Source: an uncultured Candidatus Saccharibacteria bacterium (GTDB lineage: Bacteria; Patescibacteriota; Minisyncoccia; UBA6257; JAKLIH01). Taken from it: a stretch of 25,901 nucleotides of DNA. Position numbers and translations under genes: made by a program. Location of the stretch: the NCBI GenBank assembly GCA_964507765.1, contig CAZDQI010000002.1:1-25901 (forward strand). The letters run 5' to 3'. The notes beneath the pieces are model-generated. The model was not told the origin of the DNA. It did no database searches and was given only the letters and a program-made list of their open reading frames with translations. Positions 4,483 to 25,901 of the stretch are shown piece after piece (position 1 is the first letter of the stretch; every line of letters starts with the position of its first letter).

Positions 4483-5127
4483 TTATAGTTTTAATAAATA
4501 ATCTTTATTTATTTCTTTTAAAGATAAAACTTGGTTTTTGGTTGGATATTTATCAAAATCAAACTTTTTAACTAAACCAATGCATTTCATATTGGCTTTT
4601 GAAGCGCCTATCATTCCACTTAATCCATCTTCTATAACTAAACAGTTTTCGGGACTGATATTAATCTTTTTAGCAGCTAATAAAAATATTTCTGGATCAG
4701 GCTTCCCATGAGAAACCATATCTGCACCAACAAGAGCATCAAACCTATCAACAATATTAAGTTGATTTAAAATAATATTAATTAATTCAGAAAAAGACGC
4801 CGATGCAACAGCTTTTTTAATATTTAAAGCATCTAATAAATCTAATAAATCGTAAATCCCATCAATTGGATCTACTGATATTTTGAATTTTTCAATTGCT
4901 TTACTAGTTTTTTCTTCCATTAACTCTTCTACATTAAAATCAACGCCTTTTTCACTTAATACCTTTTTAAAAACCTCCCTAGTTCTAACACCAGCGTATT
5001 TATCAGTAATTTCATCTGGCGTTATTGTAACATCATATCGAGAGAATATCTCTGACTCAACTTCAGAGTGAATTTTTTGGGTATCAGATATAACCCCATC
5101 CATATCAAAAATAACAGCTTCAATCAT
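4483..5127 (-). CDS. HAD-superfamily phosphatase (beta-PGM/CbbY-like), 214 aa
   Basis: Motif I FDMDGVISDT, motif II VASAS, motif III GKPDPEIF, motif IV EDGLSG. Confidence 0.88.
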   Translation of the reverse strand: MIEAVIFDMDGVISDTQKIHSEVESEIFSRYDVTITPDEITDKYAGVRTREVFKKVLSEKGVDFNVEELMEEKTSKAIEKFKISVDPIDGIYDLLDLLDALNIKKAVASASFSELINIILNQLNIVDRFDALVGADMVSHGKPDPEIFLLAAKKINISPENCLVIEDGLSGMIGASKANMKCIGLVKKFDFDKYPTKNQVLSLKEINKDYLLKL

Positions 5128-5136
5128 AATATTTTT

Positions 5137-5853
5137 TTAATTTTTAATACCAAAAACAGCCATCATGGCTTTAATCTCATCTGGAGGACATCCATATTGA
5201 TCACGTCGATAAGAAAAATATTTATCTTTTAAACAATAAGTACATTCATTAATAAACTCAATATTTGATTCTGGAATTTTTAGCTCTAGAATTTTTTTAA
5301 GTAAAACATATTTTGAATCAAAATATATTTTGTTATTTATATATATAAAAGCATCAGGATAATCTTTAAAATTTTCAACAAAATCTTCTTTGACCTCATA
5401 ACATTTTTCGCATAAAAGTGGAGAAATTCCAACTAAAATATTATTTGGTTTTGAATTAAAATTCTTTTGTATTAAATTTACAGCTTTTTTAATAATATCA
5501 TCATGTAATCCTTTTCAACCAGCATGAAGAAGGCCAATAACATTGTTTTCAAAATCAAAAATATATACAGCGGTGCAATCTGCAATTGTAAAACTTAAAT
5601 AAACATCTTTTAAATTAGTAATTAAACCATCACAATTATGAAACATTTTTTCACTTGTACTAGATACAATTTGTATATTGCTTGTATGCTTTAAGCGACC
5701 AACATATATATTATCAGGATTAATATTATTATTTTTTAAAAAAACATTTCTATTAGTAAAATTACGTTGATCATCAGTAATTTTCATTGGCCCATCTTTT
5801 TTTTCTGAAAACAAGGCAACTAAATTTGAATATGGTTTAAATAAATTAAACAT
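5137..5853 (-). CDS. pgeF: YfiH/PgeF family purine nucleoside phosphorylase / peptidoglycan-editing factor, 238 aa (1 TGA=Trp)
   Basis: H..., DGLIT, IADC, HAG[TGA]KG (family motif HAGWRG; TGA at 5515), C..CYEV, CTYC, YFSYRR; TAA stop. Confidence 0.88.
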
Positions 5854-5909
5854 AATTTAAGTATTTTTAAAAAATTTTATTAATTTTGCTAAACTTTTTT
5901 CATATTTTT

Positions 5910-6959
5910 TTAATATTTTAGAGCTAAATTAATTAACAAATTAATTAATTGGGTATATTTTAAACCAGTGCATTCTCATAGTTTAGGAAACATACTAATG
6001 TTAGTAAAGCCTGGAATAGTATTTAATTCATTAACATATATTTCATTTTTATCAGTTAGAAACATGTCAACTCGAGCAAATCCAGAACATTCAAGAGCCA
6101 AATATGCATACATAGCAGTATTTTGAATAGCTTTTGTTACTTTTTTAGGTAGATTTACTGGTATTACTAACTCGGCACCATCAGATTTTATATATTTATC
6201 ATCGTAAGTATAAAATTCATCTTTTGGTATTACTTGCCCAGGCAAGGAAGTAAAAACATTTGAATTTCCAATAATAGAACATTCTATTTCCTTTCCAGAA
6301 ATATACTCTTCAATAATAATTTTTTTATCATGTTTAAAAGCGTTAACTATAGCAGGTTTAAATTCTTTATCATTATAAACTTTGCTAATACCAACTGAAG
6401 ATCCCGTATTGGCTGGTTTTACAAAAAAAGGAATTTTTAATATTTTTTGTATTTTTTTAAAATTCCAATTATCAATTTCTGTTTTTTTAATACTAATAAA
6501 ATTAGAAGTTTTGATATTAGATGCTTTTAACAGTTTTTTTTGAATCACTTTATCCATATTAATACTTGAAGATAAAACATCGCATCCAACGCATTTTATA
6601 TTATATGTTTTAAGCAATCCCTGAATAGTTCCATCTTCTCCGTTTAACCCGTGCAAAATAGGAAAACAAACATCAATCGATTTAGTTTTCTTGGTTTTTA
6701 AGTTTAAAGTATACCCTTTCGAGTCTTTTAAAATTAAATAACCATTGCTTAAACTATTTAATTTTTGCTTAATAATTTTTTCGTCGATCGATATATTATT
6801 AGGTAATAAATATCAGTTTCCCTTTTTATCAATATATACTAAAGTTAAAATATATTTGTTTTTATCTAAAGCTTTAATGATATTATTAGCCGATCAAACT
6901 GATACAGAATGTTCATTGGATTTTCCTCCAAAAACAATTAATAAATTTATTGGTTTCAT
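5910..6959 (-). CDS. ddl: D-alanine--D-alanine ligase, 349 aa (3 TGA=Trp, 1 TGG)
   Basis: FGGKSNEHSVS, G.W, FPILHGLNGEDGTIQG, FVKPANTGSSVG, omega loop FYTYDDKY, NELNTIPGFT.ISMFPKL[TGA]E; TGA at 6894, 6813 and 5976; TAA stop. Confidence 0.93.
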
Positions 6960-6990
6960 GTAAATTTTTATAACAATATGTAATATGTAT

Positions 6991-7018
6991 AGTATAACAA
7001 AAATACATTTAATATCAA
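6991..7018 (-). promoter_or_regulatory. Putative promoter for ddl-pgeF-HAD
   Basis: TTGATA (7013-7018), 16 bp, TATACT (6991-6996). Confidence 0.4.
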
Positions 7019-8182
7019 CTATATTTGCTTTTCAGTCCTGATTGTAAGAGCTATCATTGGCAAAAGACTGATAATACCAAGCACTAGGATAAGTGAACGG
7101 TCAGCTAAAAAGCCAATAATTGGATTAAGTATAAACAAAGATAAGGAGCTAAATAACCCTACAGTTGATAGAATAGTTGCTCGCATGCTTGAAGGAATAT
7201 TTTCATTTAAATGGGCATAAACAAATTCAAAATGAGTTAACCCAAACCCACCAGCAAGGATAATTAAAAGTATAACCGTAAATATATTAGGCATTAAAAC
7301 CACTAATAGAAAGAAAAACATAACAATAATACCTGAAAATTTTAAATAGTTATTAAATCCTAGCCTCTTTTCAAAAAAACCAAAGTTGCTAGAAACAATA
7401 ACTTGGGCTAAAACTAAAATTGCATGAAAATAGCCAAAATATATAATAGGAATATTTAATTTACTTAGTATTGGTTGATATAATCAAATTATAAAATAGC
7501 CAGCACTATTAATTAAAATACCATTTAAGCTTATTTTTCGAATAAAACTATTGTTTTTGACAAATTTGATACCTTCGGTAAAAATCTTAAAATACTTTTT
7601 AGCTTCATTCTCCATTTCATATTGTTTTGGTTCTTTAAATCTAGATATGAATAAAAGCGCAATAAATATTGAAATAGATGAAAATATTATTGGCATATTT
7701 AATCCCATTTTTGATCCAATAAAGCTACCAATTGGAGCTGCAATTAAAATTGCTATTAATTTTCAAGAATAAGCTTTACCAAATAATTTTTTACATTCTT
7801 TCTCTTCCCCAATATCTTTAAGCGAATCAAAAAATAGGGCTTTATCAGCGCCAGACATTAAAGCAACACCTAAAGCTAAAATAAACTCACAAACAAGAAA
7901 CATATAGAAACTAGGAATAAATCCATAAATTAAAACACCAATACCATAAAATATTAAACCCAGTATTACTGATTTTTTACGACCAAAATAGTCAGCTACA
8001 ACCCCAGTAGGAACTTCTAGTATAAAATTCCAAAACATAAACCAAGATTGTAAAAACTGAACTTGAAACATTGAAATTCCACCCCATTGAGTAAAAAAAG
8101 GAATCAAAACTCCGCTAACGAAAAACAAATCTTTAAAAAAACTAAATCCGTAATAATATTTTTGTATTTGATTTTTTTGCAT
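7019..8182 (-). CDS. Major facilitator superfamily transporter, ~387 aa (2 TGA and 3 TGG Trp)
   Basis: EVPTGVVADYFGRK MFS motif A, ALMSGADKALFFD, RATILS; three track ORFs are one frame joined through TGA at 7763 and 7484; TAG stop; start 8182 chosen because 8212 lies inside a hairpin. Confidence 0.85.
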
Positions 8183-8194
8183 AAAAGATAATTT

Positions 8195-8231
8195 AAATAC
8201 ACGCCAAAACATTAAGCTTTGACGTGTATTT
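8195..8231. terminator. 14-bp hairpin immediately after secY (probable terminator)
   Basis: AAATACACGCCAAA / TTTGACGTGTATTT, one G-U pair on the minus-strand RNA, 9-nt loop; minus-strand U tail is weak. Confidence 0.5.
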
Positions 8232-8242
8232 TTTAAATAATT

Positions 8243-14519: not shown

Positions 14520-15194
14520 TTATTTTATATTATTCTTAAAAGCTTCACCTTTATATATTCAGACTTTGATTCCAATCTTACCATAAGTACAGCGAGTATA
14601 AACAGTTCCATAATCAATTACAGCTCTAAGAGTATTTAACGGTAATTTACCTTCTTTAACCCAGTCAGAACGAGCAATATCAGCACCGTCTAAACGACCA
14701 GTAACATATATTTTTGCTCCTTTAACTTCACGGTTAGACATAATACGTTCAAGATATTTTTTAATAGTTCTTCTGTAAGGAAGCCTTCTTTCAATATCAT
14801 CACGAATATCAAAGGCAACAATTTGAGCAGATAAAAATGGCTTTTTAACTTCTTCGATATTAATACTAATACTGTATTTGTCAGAAATTTTATTTTTTCT
14901 TCTAAACTTGTTTAAACTTTTTTCAAGTGATTTTTTAATATCATCTAAACCTTCACCTTTGTGTTTAATAATCATACCAGGTTTAGAAGTAAAAATTACA
15001 ACGTTAATTCGATCACCTTTGCGTTCAATTTCAACGGTTTGATAATGAGCTTTTTCAAGCAACTTATCAAGATCGCGTCTAATTAATTGATCTTCAGCTA
15101 ATTTTCAAGGAAAATTATCTAAATCAAATCAACGTGATGTTCAGTTTTTGTTTATGCCTAATCTTTTAATTGTTGGATTGATATGTTGAGCCAT
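14520..15194 (-). CDS. rpsC: 30S ribosomal protein S3, 224 aa (4 TGA=Trp)
   Basis: RLGINKN[TGA]TSR[TGA]F, GRLDGADIARS, PLNTLRA.IDY, GIKV[TGA]IYKGE; TGA at 15141, 15129, 15105 and 14559. Confidence 0.96.
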
Positions 15195-15211
15195 AATTCT
15201 AATTAAATATA

Positions 15212-15712
15212 TTAATTAATTACTTTTCTTTGAATAATGTTTTTATTTTGACCTTTTTGCGCTTTAACGTGGGTTTTTTCTTTTCTTTGAATTTGATTTT
15301 TATCTTTGTTTATTGTTCTCTTTTTTGTTTTACTTTTACTTTCAATGTCTTTAATATCAATTTTCTTTAATTTCTTTTCATCAACTGGTTTTAATGTCAT
15401 GACAACATGACAAGAGCGATGACGGATCAAATAAGCTGATCCTCTAGCTCTAGGTCTGGTTCTTTTAAGGGTTGGACCATCAGTAACATTGATTTTTGAA
15501 ATATATAAGTCTTTAGGATCGATTTGGTGATTGTGAATAGCATTAGCTTTAGCTGATTTTAATAACTTCAAAATATCAACTCCAGATCTCTTAGGAGAAT
15601 ATTTTAGCTGACGCTCAGCTTGTTCAATACTTAAACCTTTAATTAAACGAGTAACTAATCTGACTTTTCGAGGAGCTATTCTTAGGTATTTTAATGAAGA
15701 TATTATTTCCAT
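15212..15712 (-). CDS. rplV: 50S ribosomal protein L22 with basic C-terminal extension
   Basis: LRIAPRKVRLV, KSAKANA, LKRTRPRARG. Confidence 0.96.
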   Translation of the reverse strand: MEIISSLKYLRIAPRKVRLVTRLIKGLSIEQAERQLKYSPKRSGVDILKLLKSAKANAIHNHQIDPKDLYISKINVTDGPTLKRTRPRARGSAYLIRHRSCHVVMTLKPVDEKKLKKIDIKDIESKSKTKKRTINKDKNQIQRKEKTHVKAQKGQNKNIIQRKVIN

Positions 15713-20175: not shown

Positions 20176-20266
20176 AATTTTTTTTTAATATTTTTTTATA
20201 AAAATTATTAGTTGAAGCCAATTCAACCAAACTTAATAAATTTATTAAGTTTCTTAAAGCAATCAT

Positions 20267-20295
20267 ATACTATCATATAGAATAAAAATAGTCAA
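20267..20295 (-). promoter_or_regulatory. Proximal tuf/S10 promoter
   Basis: TTGACT (20290-20295), 17 bp, TG-n-TAGTAT (20267-20272). Confidence 0.65.
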
Positions 20296-20304
20296 TACCT
20301 ATTT

Positions 20305-20545
20305 ACCAACAGCCAAGAGTGTGACCTTGATAGGGATAAATACCTCCCTCTTATCAAGGAAATAGTTTAGTATTTGCTCGTCTTTCAAAAACAAACTATT
20401 TTGTTCACACTACATAGACGAGTCAAAAAGTACAACTGTCGTCAGTAATTCTGGCGACAACAAAATTCATATTTAAAATACAAATTTATGCTCTCACCTG
20501 AATAAACAAATACTTTACTATTCACACTCATTGCGGTTGTTATAT
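20305..20545 (-). ncRNA. Candidate structured ncRNA or leader, ~240-250 nt, family not recognised
   Basis: Lies downstream of a consensus promoter; 5'/3' closing helix GAGTGTGA/TCACACTC; several internal hairpins; ends are approximate. Confidence 0.45.
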
Positions 20546-20551
20546 ACTGCT

Positions 20552-20580
20552 ATTATAGCATTTTATTTTTAAATTGTCAA
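20552..20580 (-). promoter_or_regulatory. Full-consensus sigma70 promoter
   Basis: TTGACA (20575-20580), 17 bp, TG-n-TATAAT (20552-20557). Confidence 0.8.
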
Positions 20581-20581
20581 A

Positions 20582-21361
20582 TTAGCTAATATTTTGTTGA
20601 TTCCTTGCATTCCTTACAGAATCAATTTCTGCCATTATTTCTGGATATTGCTTATGCATTAACTCATATAGGCCAGAACGAGAACAACCAATTTCTCTTG
20701 CAGCTGCGCTCATGCCATCCTTAGCAATTTTTTTAGCAACTTCATTAATATCGTTAATTTTAATGGGGCTATAACTAAAATATTGTTTAAATTCTGGATG
20801 AACATTTTTAATATAGCTCTCCATCCTTTTTCTAGTAATGCCTAATTCTCTAGCAACGCCTTTTATGCCTTTTCCGCTTTTTATACTTTCTTCTAAATAA
20901 TTTCAATATTCATCAAGCACTGCATATATTTTTTCTTTTATTTCGCGTTGTTTACCGGGCATTGAAATTATATAACGAATTTTTTCTATAAGATCCTTGG
21001 GTATAGATTTAGTAACATCTTTTTTTGATAAAAACACTTTGGCTCATTTAATAAAAGCTGAAATAAAAGACTTATTGGATATTTTATCTTTTTTAGGAAT
21101 TAATTTTTCTATTTCTACAGCTGCATCTACAATTATTGGCGGGACAGTATATTTTTCTTCACTTGGCTCAAAAGAATTTAATCGCATATATATTTGCTTG
21201 CAAATTTTTGAAAACAATTTTTTTTGATCATCATTTTTAAAAGCAATTTTTCAATCAAAACTTCCCCTCTTATTAATAAATCTATACAATATGTCTTCTA
21301 TCTTGATAGTCCTATTAATTTTTGATTCTTCTTTTAAAATGCATTGTTCTTTGTTCTGCAT
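20582..21361 (-). CDS. Hypothetical protein with two C-terminal HTH-like motifs, 259 aa (3 TGA); paralog B
   Basis: Open frame through TGA at 21251, 21044 and 20903; IKGVARELGITRKRM and MSAAAREIGCSRSGLY; colinear with the neighbouring paralog. Confidence 0.8.
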
Positions 21362-21373
21362 AATATATTTAAT

Positions 21374-22144
21374 TTAATTATGTTTTTTATTTTTTTTATT
21401 GTGTTGTTTTATTTCTTCCATTACTTTGGGATAATTTTTCTTTAAATAACCACTAAGACATGTTATCGAGCACCCTAGTCTTTCCGCCATTGCATCCATA
21501 CCGTTATCAAAAATATATTGTTTAGCCTCTTCGATATTTTCAATTTTAATTTTTGAGTATCTTTGTTTAATACTTCATCCCGGACTTCTTGTTGTAACAT
21601 ATGCCTGTAATTGTGGTAAACCCATACCCAATTCTCTAGCAATACTTGAAATATTTCTGCCACTAGCTATAACTTCTCCTAAAACTTCTTTGTATTCATC
21701 AAGTATATCATATACTGCGTCTAAGTTTTTTACACCTAATTCAAATTCTCTTGCCTCATTAATTTTATCTATAAGCTCTCAAGGAATAGGTTTAAGATAT
21801 ATTTTTTTAAATAAATCTTTTTTAGCTCATTTAATAAAAGCCATGATAAACTTTTTATCAGATATTTTTTCTCCTTTGGGTATTAGTTTTTCTATTTCAA
21901 TAGCAGCGCTTGCAATAATAGGAGGAACTGCTCCCTTTTCTTCTCTTGGCTCAAAAGCATTTAACCTTAAGCATATTTTTTCACAAATATCTAAAAAAGT
22001 TTTTTCATTACTTTTGTCTTTAAAATTTAATTCTAAATTAAATTTTCCACGGTTATTTAAAAAACGATATACCATATCCTCGATTTGAAGAATTCTATCT
22101 ACTTTTGAGTCTTTTTTAAGTATTGCTTCTCTTTGTTTTTTCAT
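21374..22144 (-). CDS. Hypothetical protein with two C-terminal HTH-like motifs, 256 aa (3 TGA); paralog A
   Basis: Track ORF 21827-22144 extends through TGA to TAA at 21374; ISSIARELGMGLPQL and MDAMAERLGCSITCL; 61/108 identical to paralog B over the N-terminus (hand alignment). Confidence 0.8.
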
Positions 22145-22200
22145 AATATATATTTAAATATATATTTAAATTAAACCAAATTTTTTAAAAATAAACAAGA

Positions 22201-22229
22201 AAAATCCGCAAGAGTTTAATTCTTGCGGA
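22201..22229 (-). terminator. Intrinsic terminator directly after fusA
   Basis: TCCGCAAGA/TCTTGCGGA 9-bp stem, 7-nt loop, followed by a T run on the minus strand. Confidence 0.75.
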
Positions 22230-25294: not shown

Positions 25295-25348
25295 ATGTCA
25301 AAAACTTAAAAATTAATTAAATATTTTAATAAAATATATAAAAATACA

Positions 25349-25375
25349 TATTTTACAAAGCCATTTTGTAAAATA
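25349..25375. other. 11-bp hairpin in the rpsL 5' leader
   Basis: TATTTTACAAA-GCCAT-TTTGTAAAATA. Confidence 0.4.
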
Positions 25376-25422
25376 AATTATGTCTTAGCACATTAACATA
25401 ATCCTATTGTATAGGTAATTAA

Positions 25423-25451
25423 ATATTACCATATCTATTATTAAAAGTCAA
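25423..25451 (-). promoter_or_regulatory. Probable str-operon (rpsL) promoter
   Basis: TTGACT (25446-25451), 17 bp, TG-n-TAATAT (25423-25428). Confidence 0.55.
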
Positions 25452-25490
25452 TAAAATACCGCCAAGACATATAACCTAAGATCTTGGCGG
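25452..25490 (-). terminator. GC-rich hairpin terminator
   Basis: CCGCCAAGA (25459-25467)/TCTTGGCGG (25482-25490), followed by TATTTT on the minus strand. Confidence 0.6.
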
Positions 25491-25590
25491 CTGTGGTATA
25501 ACACGATATGTGGCTAGATAATTTCCTTAACTGACAATAGCCTTACATTGTCAGTTAAAATAAGGTACGAGTTGTGCATGGTTCTGCACA
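25452..25590 (-). ncRNA. Candidate ~140-nt small RNA with its own promoter and terminator
   Basis: Hairpins at 25572-25591 (7 bp) and 25527-25558 (12 bp) plus the terminal hairpin; no known family recognised. Confidence 0.45.
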
Positions 25591-25595
25591 ATCAA

Positions 25596-25624
25596 ATACT
25601 ATCAAATCATTCTTAAATTGTCAA
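25596..25624 (-). promoter_or_regulatory. Sigma70 promoter driving the candidate sRNA
   Basis: TTGACA (25619-25624), 17 bp, TG-n-TAGTAT (25596-25601). Confidence 0.65.
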
Positions 25625-25735
25625 TACAATAGAATATTATGTCTTGATCGCCAGAAATACATTCTTTAAAGAATGGTGCACCGGTTGTCTCTTTATACTA
25701 ATAACAAAATTCTATAATGTTTAAGTCAATAAATA

Positions 25736-25759
25736 CCGCCAAGACATATGTCTTGGCGG
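25736..25759. repeat. 24-bp perfect palindrome CCGCCAAGACATATGTCTTGGCGG
   Basis: Read directly; arms identical to the hairpin at 25459-25490. Confidence 0.8.
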
Positions 25760-25836
25760 CGGATTTTAGGATTGCCTGATTCGGCTAATATCTCGGCAAA
25801 ATATTGGGCTTGCCGAACGCCCTATGTCCATGTTTA

Positions 25837-25858
25837 AATGTCTTGGACCCAAGACATT
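25837..25858. repeat. Dyad AATGTCTTGG-AC-CCAAGACATT
   Basis: Read directly; shares the ATGTCTTGG core with the 24-bp palindrome. Confidence 0.7.
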
Positions 25859-25901
25859 GTTCTGACTCTAAAAAACAATTTATTCCTCCTTTCGTTTTTT
25901 T

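Follow-up and report, generated by a model that had tools for sequence, protein, structure and literature searches.

Tandem helix-turn-helix (HTH) modules that read extended, bipartite DNA sites are known from transposases, from paired and Myb proteins and from the DNA-binding tails of homing endonucleases. Here we describe two adjacent genes, A and B, whose products are predicted to carry such modules. They lie between fusA (24354–22237) and tuf (20175–18976) in a stretch of 25,901 nt from an uncultured Candidatus Saccharibacteria bacterium (assembly GCA_964507765.1, contig CAZDQI010000002.1, positions 1 to 25,901), hereafter called the window. The described systems with which the two proteins can be compared are the arrays of HTH_23/HTH_28 units, the IstA transposase of IS21 and the group-3 sigma-70 factors. 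With the arrays, A and B have in common a repeat unit of ~55 aa (G-x-[ST]-x3-[IV]A-x2-LG-x7-L-x2-Y[IL]-x4-P[ED]); in contrast to homing-endonuclease and other multi-HTH arrays, they have two units only and no nuclease domain, and their N-terminal domain is missing from all array proteins. Residues 10–71 of the IS21 IstA of IS5376 (PDB 8q4d and 8b4h) align with HTH unit 1 and the linker behind it (profile positions 155–215) at E 5e-5, although A and B are without the DDE domain, the IstB partner, the terminal inverted repeats and the mobility of such an element, and their location is fixed across lineages. Group-3 sigma-70 factors (FliA, SigB, WhiG) are of similar length and likewise place a helical N-domain before two HTHs, whereas A and B show no profile similarity to sigma regions 2, 3 or 4, and their HTHs are closely spaced internal repeats.

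We consider it somewhat better than an even chance that A and B form a lineage-restricted family of sequence-specific DNA-binding proteins, most likely transcription regulators. This reading is built on the open reading frames (ORFs), their paralogy, purifying selection, synteny, HTH homology and the absence of known catalytic domains, and from these we infer DNA binding, oligomerisation, regulation and the existence of targets. An earlier note on this DNA, made from the sequence alone, had proposed a pair of DNA-binding regulators, possibly heteromeric or with different targets. The HTH homology and the divergence of the recognition helices on which that proposal drew both stand, while binding and regulation keep the status of deductions from sequence.

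Two tandem paralogues and their genetic code

Gene A runs from 22144 to 21374 and gene B from 21361 to 20582, both on the minus strand; they encode 256 and 259 aa, respectively, before the stop codon, contain three in-frame TGA (Trp) codons each and are separated by 12 nt (21362–21373). Aligned end to end, the two proteins agree at 113 of 257 positions (44%; BLASTP E 2e-70), and at the N-terminus there are exactly 61 identities in 108 ungapped positions. Tandem paralogues with just this spacing and N-terminal identity had been claimed in the earlier note, together with the motifs ARELG and AERLGCS/AREIGCS, and all of these were recovered. Its expectation that standard annotation would lose the two genes was also borne out: translation table 11 gives fragments only, of 62–105 aa. 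A and B exemplify in this way the losses that an assumed standard code causes among the genes of UGA=Trp Patescibacteria.

The window is very AT-rich (GC 24–37% per kb) and comprises, on the minus strand, the str-S10-spc cluster of ribosomal-protein and translation-factor genes. The standard code breaks up many of its genes, which reach full length once TGA is taken as a sense codon. TGA occupies the positions marked x in the motifs KNxTSRxF of S3 (14520–15215) and TTCFx and SETVxRQ of EF-G (fusA), where we take E. coli to have Trp (presumably KPWNSTWF, TTAFW and SETVWRQ), and to judge from these genes TGA encodes Trp in the source organism. TGG is used as well, which makes the code table 4 rather than table 25. 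Among named genomes, the closest is 'Candidatus Paceibacterota bacterium STD2_257' (JAQUZI01; Patescibacteriota), and a sister lineage of 33% GC, represented by the loci L005 and L015, likewise has TGA as a Trp codon. The first report of UGA=Trp in Patescibacteriota (class Minisyncoccia, family JAKLIH01 and genus GCA-2747955) is the 2026 gTranslate preprint (10.64898/2026.05.24.727570).

The order fusA–A–B–intergenic stretch–tuf, in which the intergenic stretch holds a structured RNA, recurs in five other assemblies. Both orthologues are intact, in this order, in two JGI metagenome contigs (L001 and L003) and in a Paceibacterota genome (L004), and three partial contigs (L002, L007 and L008) agree with it. 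Gene A of the window is 86–87% identical to its orthologue in L001 and 71–72% identical to that in L003; for gene B the corresponding values are 64% and 81%. Pairwise ratios of non-synonymous to synonymous substitution rates (dN/dS) of 0.16–0.32 for A and 0.19–0.28 for B indicate that purifying selection acts on both genes, far more weakly than on fusA, tuf and rpsG (0.04–0.07). Because these ratios are well below 1, we argue that both copies have retained function. The family-invariant Trp column in AFIKWAK is encoded by TGA in every gene except A of L001, which has TGG, and the remaining TGA columns of the family alternate with Phe, Tyr, Leu or Ile. On this evidence A and B are real genes. 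As a separate observation, the divergence of the two genes is discordant among lineages, A being closer to L001 and B to L003 with fusA ~97% identical to both, a pattern suggestive of recombination at the locus or of bursts of fast evolution.

Domain architecture and relatives of the family

Each protein has an N-terminal domain (N-domain; aa 1–138 of A, 21731–22144; aa 1–139 of B, 20945–21361) and a C-terminal half of ~115 aa that consists of two repeats of one ~55-aa unit. HTH unit 1 spans aa 139–192 of A (21569–21730) and aa 140–193 of B (20783–20944), and HTH unit 2 spans aa 197–250 of A (21395–21556) and aa 198–251 of B (20609–20770), all on the minus strand. Units 1 and 2 can be aligned with each other and follow, in both proteins, the pattern G-x2-[IM]-x3-A-x2-[LI]G-x7-L-x2-[YL][ILVM]-x4-P. 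Compared directly with Pfam, A and B reach HTH_28 at E 0.1 only and stay below every HTH gathering threshold. A profile of the family, by contrast with these direct comparisons, matched 51 further proteins at E 2e-12 to 1e-3, usually over several stretches per protein and confined to residues ~105–254 (mostly 145–250), and 37 of the 51 carry HTH_23 or HTH_28 (Pfam, above E 1e-5). The best array match, P0010 (E 2e-12), contains five such units and is a GIY-YIG/NUMOD3 homing endonuclease. When the PDB was searched with the full profiles, the N-terminal HTH of IstA was the sole meaningful match; a de novo designed repeat protein (8vd6) that also came up was judged irrelevant. AlphaFold2 predicts three helices for unit 1 (152–160, 165–172 and 176–186) at a predicted local distance difference test score (pLDDT) of ~70–86, and three for unit 2 (204–214, 216–223 and 227–237) at a pLDDT of 75–90.

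By these profile matches and structural models, the C-terminal half is composed of two homeodomain-like HTH units of the HTH_23/HTH_28 type, with membership indirect, via the profile matches. The two HTH motifs claimed earlier are therefore genuine, given the array matches, the IstA match and the predicted three-helix units. The HTH half is, to judge from the same matches, not novel: it is of a known homeodomain-like type common to transposases and homing endonucleases. The putative recognition helices differ between the paralogues, as had been noticed from the sequence. In unit 1 the helix after ARELG reads LPQLQAYV in A and RKRMESYI in B, and in unit 2 the helix after AERLGCS/AREIGCS reads ITCLSGYL in A and RSGLYELM in B. 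Among the orthologues of each gene these helices are mostly kept, and the differences between A and B are consistent with a divergence in DNA specificity after duplication.

Word-indexed searches of 5.8 billion proteins returned close orthologues only. A HMMER scan of 1.84 billion cluster representatives added P0006 (357 aa, E 2e-26) and P0007 (338 aa, E 9e-22), the only more distant proteins related over their full length, as well as two short fragments of 43 and 47 aa. Among ~15 billion predicted proteins the family comprises only four clusters and short fragments. P0006 and P0007 are 24–29% identical to A in the family alignment and 27–32% identical to A and B in pairwise comparison; both have the same N-domain, followed by three HTH units where A and B have two. 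In the GC-33% sister lineage (L005, L015), P0007 is a single copy directly after rpsL-rpsG-fusA. Between the two lineages fusA is 88% identical and the HTH protein, which follows fusA in both, 27–30% identical; the family therefore evolves very fast (~6 times faster than the neighbouring genes) yet keeps its place. The viral contigs, phage records and plasmid records that were scanned held no relatives, nor did the defence-system models of PADLOC, and when every code-4 ORF of the window and of three related loci was searched with a hidden Markov model, no extra paralogue came up. As far as the searched databases show, the family appears confined to UGA=Trp Minisyncoccia.

The N-domain (~138 aa) found no match in Pfam, NCBIfam, PHROGs or PADLOC, where A, B, P0006, P0007 and the isolated N-domains gave sub-threshold HTH matches and noise, and its profile found nothing among the PDB sequences. 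AlphaFold2 predicts it to be all-helical, with five to six helices (pLDDT 61–68). In Foldseek comparisons, neither the full model (set against PDB and BFVD) nor the N-domain model (set against PDB) had a significant match. The earlier statement that the family is not a recognised one thus holds for the N-domain, the HTH half being of known type. Across seven family sequences the invariant columns are nearly all hydrophobic or aromatic (one Cys), with one Arg, one Lys, one Gly and one Pro besides, and no acidic residue or His is among them. Since the invariant columns are of this kind, the N-domain looks structural rather than catalytic, and we infer that it serves association or contact with an effector. 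Both this domain and the entire family are previously undescribed. The orphan domain is a candidate for a new fold or interaction module.

Transcription of the pair and competing explanations

The pair had been described as embedded in the translation supercluster. Physically this is correct, but transcriptionally the pair is probably set apart. An intrinsic terminator follows fusA (22205–22229, minus strand; a GC-rich stem of 9–11 bp, then TTTTTCTTGT), and L001, L003/L004 and L005/L015 have a hairpin in the corresponding position, its stem sequence being different in L005 (CCAACGAGA/TCTCGTTGG). Upstream of A lies a promoter-like block (22170–22198, minus strand; TTGTTT-17 nt-TTTAAT, with TGG before). 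The form TTGnTT-N17-TTTAAT aligns in the window, L001, L003, L004, L005/L015 and L006, the remaining spacer not being conserved; a simple promoter scan missed the block because its -10 is without the canonical A at position 2, and we regard it as a putative promoter. Past this block, just ahead of the A start codon, are two direct copies of ATTTAAATATAT (22145–22171 or, taken more narrowly, 22148–22171, minus strand), which form overlapping perfect palindromes of 20 and 22 nt. A first-order Markov model gives 0.15 perfect palindromes of at least 20 nt per window, with a higher local expectation in this almost pure A/T region. The repeats are kept in L003/L004 and degenerate in L001 and are, speculatively, a candidate operator. 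On the other side of the pair, a sigma-70-type promoter of the RNA gene (20552–20580, minus strand; TTGACA-17-TGnTATAAT, 12/12 plus extended -10) begins 1 nt past the B stop codon and shows no variation in four lineages, and tuf has a separate promoter (20267–20295, minus strand; TTGACT-17-TGnTAGTAT). Given the conserved fusA terminator, the promoter-like block before A and the separate promoters of the RNA and of tuf, the pair is probably transcriptionally autonomous, forming its own unit from the fusA terminator to the RNA-gene promoter.

We postulate that the pair goes back to a single gene just after fusA, with three HTH units, that this gene underwent tandem duplication in the lineage of the window and that the recognition helices of its two copies diverged afterwards. 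Because of this divergence, A and B probably recognise different half-sites or targets. By analogy with the tandem modules described at the outset, the HTH units of each protein would read an extended, bipartite DNA site. Transcribed as a unit of their own between the fusA terminator and the RNA-gene promoter, A and B would act as regulators, plausibly autoregulatory ones via the ATTTAAATATAT repeats in their own leader.

Several observations weigh against regulators of this kind. First, the putative recognition helices of A, in unit 1 as in unit 2, are poor in basic residues. Second, evolution ~6-fold faster than that of the neighbours is unusual for a core regulator. Third, the N-domain model is of low confidence (pLDDT 61–68), and the putative -10 upstream of A is non-canonical. 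Lastly, no RNA-seq run contained the locus, and two digester metatranscriptomes yielded just scraps of tuf-like contigs, which say nothing about expression of the pair. If the DNA-binding reading is true, A and B would be among the few candidate transcription regulators in the regulator-poor, ultra-small bacteria of the Candidate Phyla Radiation (CPR), and they would sit beside the genes of the translation machinery. In other respects they are an ordinary case of a lineage-specific HTH protein and a modest curiosity, orphan proteins being common in CPR genomes. Nothing here points to a new mechanism. It seems improbable that the pair and its three-HTH ancestor represent a new factor of UGA=Trp Minisyncoccia, acting either as a sigma-like specificity subunit of RNA polymerase or as protein partner of the adjacent RNA, in a hitherto unknown control module heading the tuf/S10 cluster.

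The alternative that survives best, unlikely as we hold it to be, derives A and B from a selfish element, either an IS21-like transposase or a free-standing homing endonuclease that had inserted itself between two strongly conserved genes. Only its DNA-binding tail, domesticated or in decay, would be left after loss of the catalytic part, and this tail would either persist as a neutral passenger or have been co-opted. The best matches of the HTH half are indeed the IstA N-terminus and the five-unit endonuclease P0010. Free-standing homing endonuclease genes typically sit between conserved genes with their own terminator and promoter, which is also the setting of the pair, and very fast evolution with discordant divergence of A and B among lineages would suit a selfish origin. 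Yet the proteins end right after HTH unit 2, transposase and integrase-core Pfam families gave no match at E ≤ 10, and no GIY-YIG, HNH or LAGLIDADG nuclease domain was matched in Pfam, the N-domain being predicted all-alpha and having no conserved acidic or His residues. No inverted repeats flank the pair and no istB is its neighbour, with fusA on one side and the RNA gene followed by tuf on the other. The absence of relatives from viral contigs, phages and plasmids, the position kept across lineages whose fusA is only 88% identical, and the dN/dS well below 1 in both copies speak against a selfish remnant as well. A transposon as such was rejected on the lack of inverted repeats and of a catalytic domain. 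A clear assignment to a transposase remnant, which the earlier note had raised against its own proposal, was likewise not obtained, there being no DDE domain, no inverted repeats and no istB.

Less probable still is that A and B act together with the ~245-nt structured RNA (20300–20546, minus strand), either binding it as a ribonucleoprotein or controlling its promoter, so that the locus would be a protein-RNA module. The RNA is strongly structured (minimum free energy -76.8 kcal/mol, z = -6.3; 81 pairs, two of them with compensatory changes) and conserved, the aligned fusA–tuf intergenic stretch that contains it having a mean column identity of 93%. It belongs to no Rfam family at gathering or permissive E-value thresholds, and ARAGORN found no tRNA or tmRNA in it. 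Its promoter directly abuts B, and in L015, too, a consensus promoter and a partial homologue of the RNA (TCGTCTA...GTGTG.AA...AGACGAGCAAA) come after the single-copy homologue. The adjacency of protein and RNA is old, which would suit a functional link and, just as well, the inheritance of gene order. A very stable order passed on vertically can account for it, and the RNA has a promoter of its own. The 93% conservation of the intergenic stretch against 64–87% for the proteins is moreover a poor fit for co-evolving partners, and HTH_23/HTH_28 units are DNA-binding modules.

We give even less weight to the possibility that A and B are initiation factors of the sigma-70 family, or sigma-like ones that bind RNA polymerase, which have diverged to an extreme degree; the N-domain would then correspond to sigma region 2 and the HTH units to regions 3 and 4. 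This possibility arises from Foldseek, where the top list for the full model consists almost entirely of sigma factors (Mtb SigA, S. aureus SigB, B. subtilis SigD, WhiG and FliA) aligned over 230–300 columns, and where some sigma chains reappear with the N-domain model alone; a length of ~256 aa and a three-part, all-helical layout would also suit a group-3 sigma factor. These structure matches are at noise level, however (E 0.2–4, TM score 0.11–0.23), and come from models with a pLDDT of 61–68. Neither A, B, P0006 nor P0007 matched Pfam Sigma70_r2, r3, r4, r4_2 or ECF at E ≤ 10. An hhalign comparison with an alignment of E. coli FliA, RpoD (regions 2–4), RpoS and RpoH gave a probability of 2% and no region-2 match, the sole match pairing HTH1 with the region-3 HTH. 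The HTH units are furthermore repeats of each other, ~50 aa apart, with no equivalent of regions 3.2 and 4.1, and the relatives P0006 and P0007 have three of them. A clear sigma-factor assignment, also named earlier as a result that would tell against a pair of regulators, was accordingly not obtained, with Pfam and hhalign negative and Foldseek non-significant.

That A and B are chance frames opened by reading TGA as sense has almost no probability left: both are invisible under table 11, but spurious ORFs are ruled out by the dN/dS of 0.16–0.32 and the TGA/TGG swap at the invariant Trp column, and the intact orthologous ORFs in six assemblies, the significant HTH homology and the match of window TGA codons to the Trp positions of E. 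coli EF-G and S3 argue in the same direction.

Other elements of the window

Two further non-coding regions of the cluster contain palindromes. The 5' leader of tuf (20185–20260, minus strand), between the tuf promoter and the ATG, has a perfect 24-nt palindrome, AAACTTAATAAATTTATTAAGTTT, at 20229–20252, followed by a second hairpin (GTTGAA..TTCAAC) and a T-run. This leader is near-invariant in four lineages, with one loop substitution in the second hairpin and one 1-nt indel, and it could be an attenuator or an operator.

Upstream of rpsL, ~600 nt of non-coding DNA (25295–25901, minus strand) contain three hairpins that share CCAAGAC/GTCTTGG arms. The hairpin at 25760–25735 scores as an intrinsic terminator, and two of the three (25760–25735 and about 25490–25445) run straight into TTGAC-type promoters; the stem of the fusA terminator (CCGCAAGA/TCTTGCGG) is similar to these arms. 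The region matched no Rfam family at gathering or E-value thresholds, and ARAGORN reported no tRNA or tmRNA in it. Its layout suggests several small transcription units, perhaps small RNAs. The palindromes at 25459–25858 had been put forward as candidate partners of A and B. What is found there is instead a set of GC-rich hairpins with T-runs and TTGAC-type promoters, and the palindromes are more likely to be terminators of small transcription units than operators.

Lastly, secY and adk are normally neighbours, and in the window they are separated by four genes (4483–8242, minus strand). From their translations, inspected by eye, we take these to encode an HAD-type phosphatase, a YfiH/laccase-domain-like protein, a D-Ala-D-Ala ligase-like protein and an MFS-type transporter.

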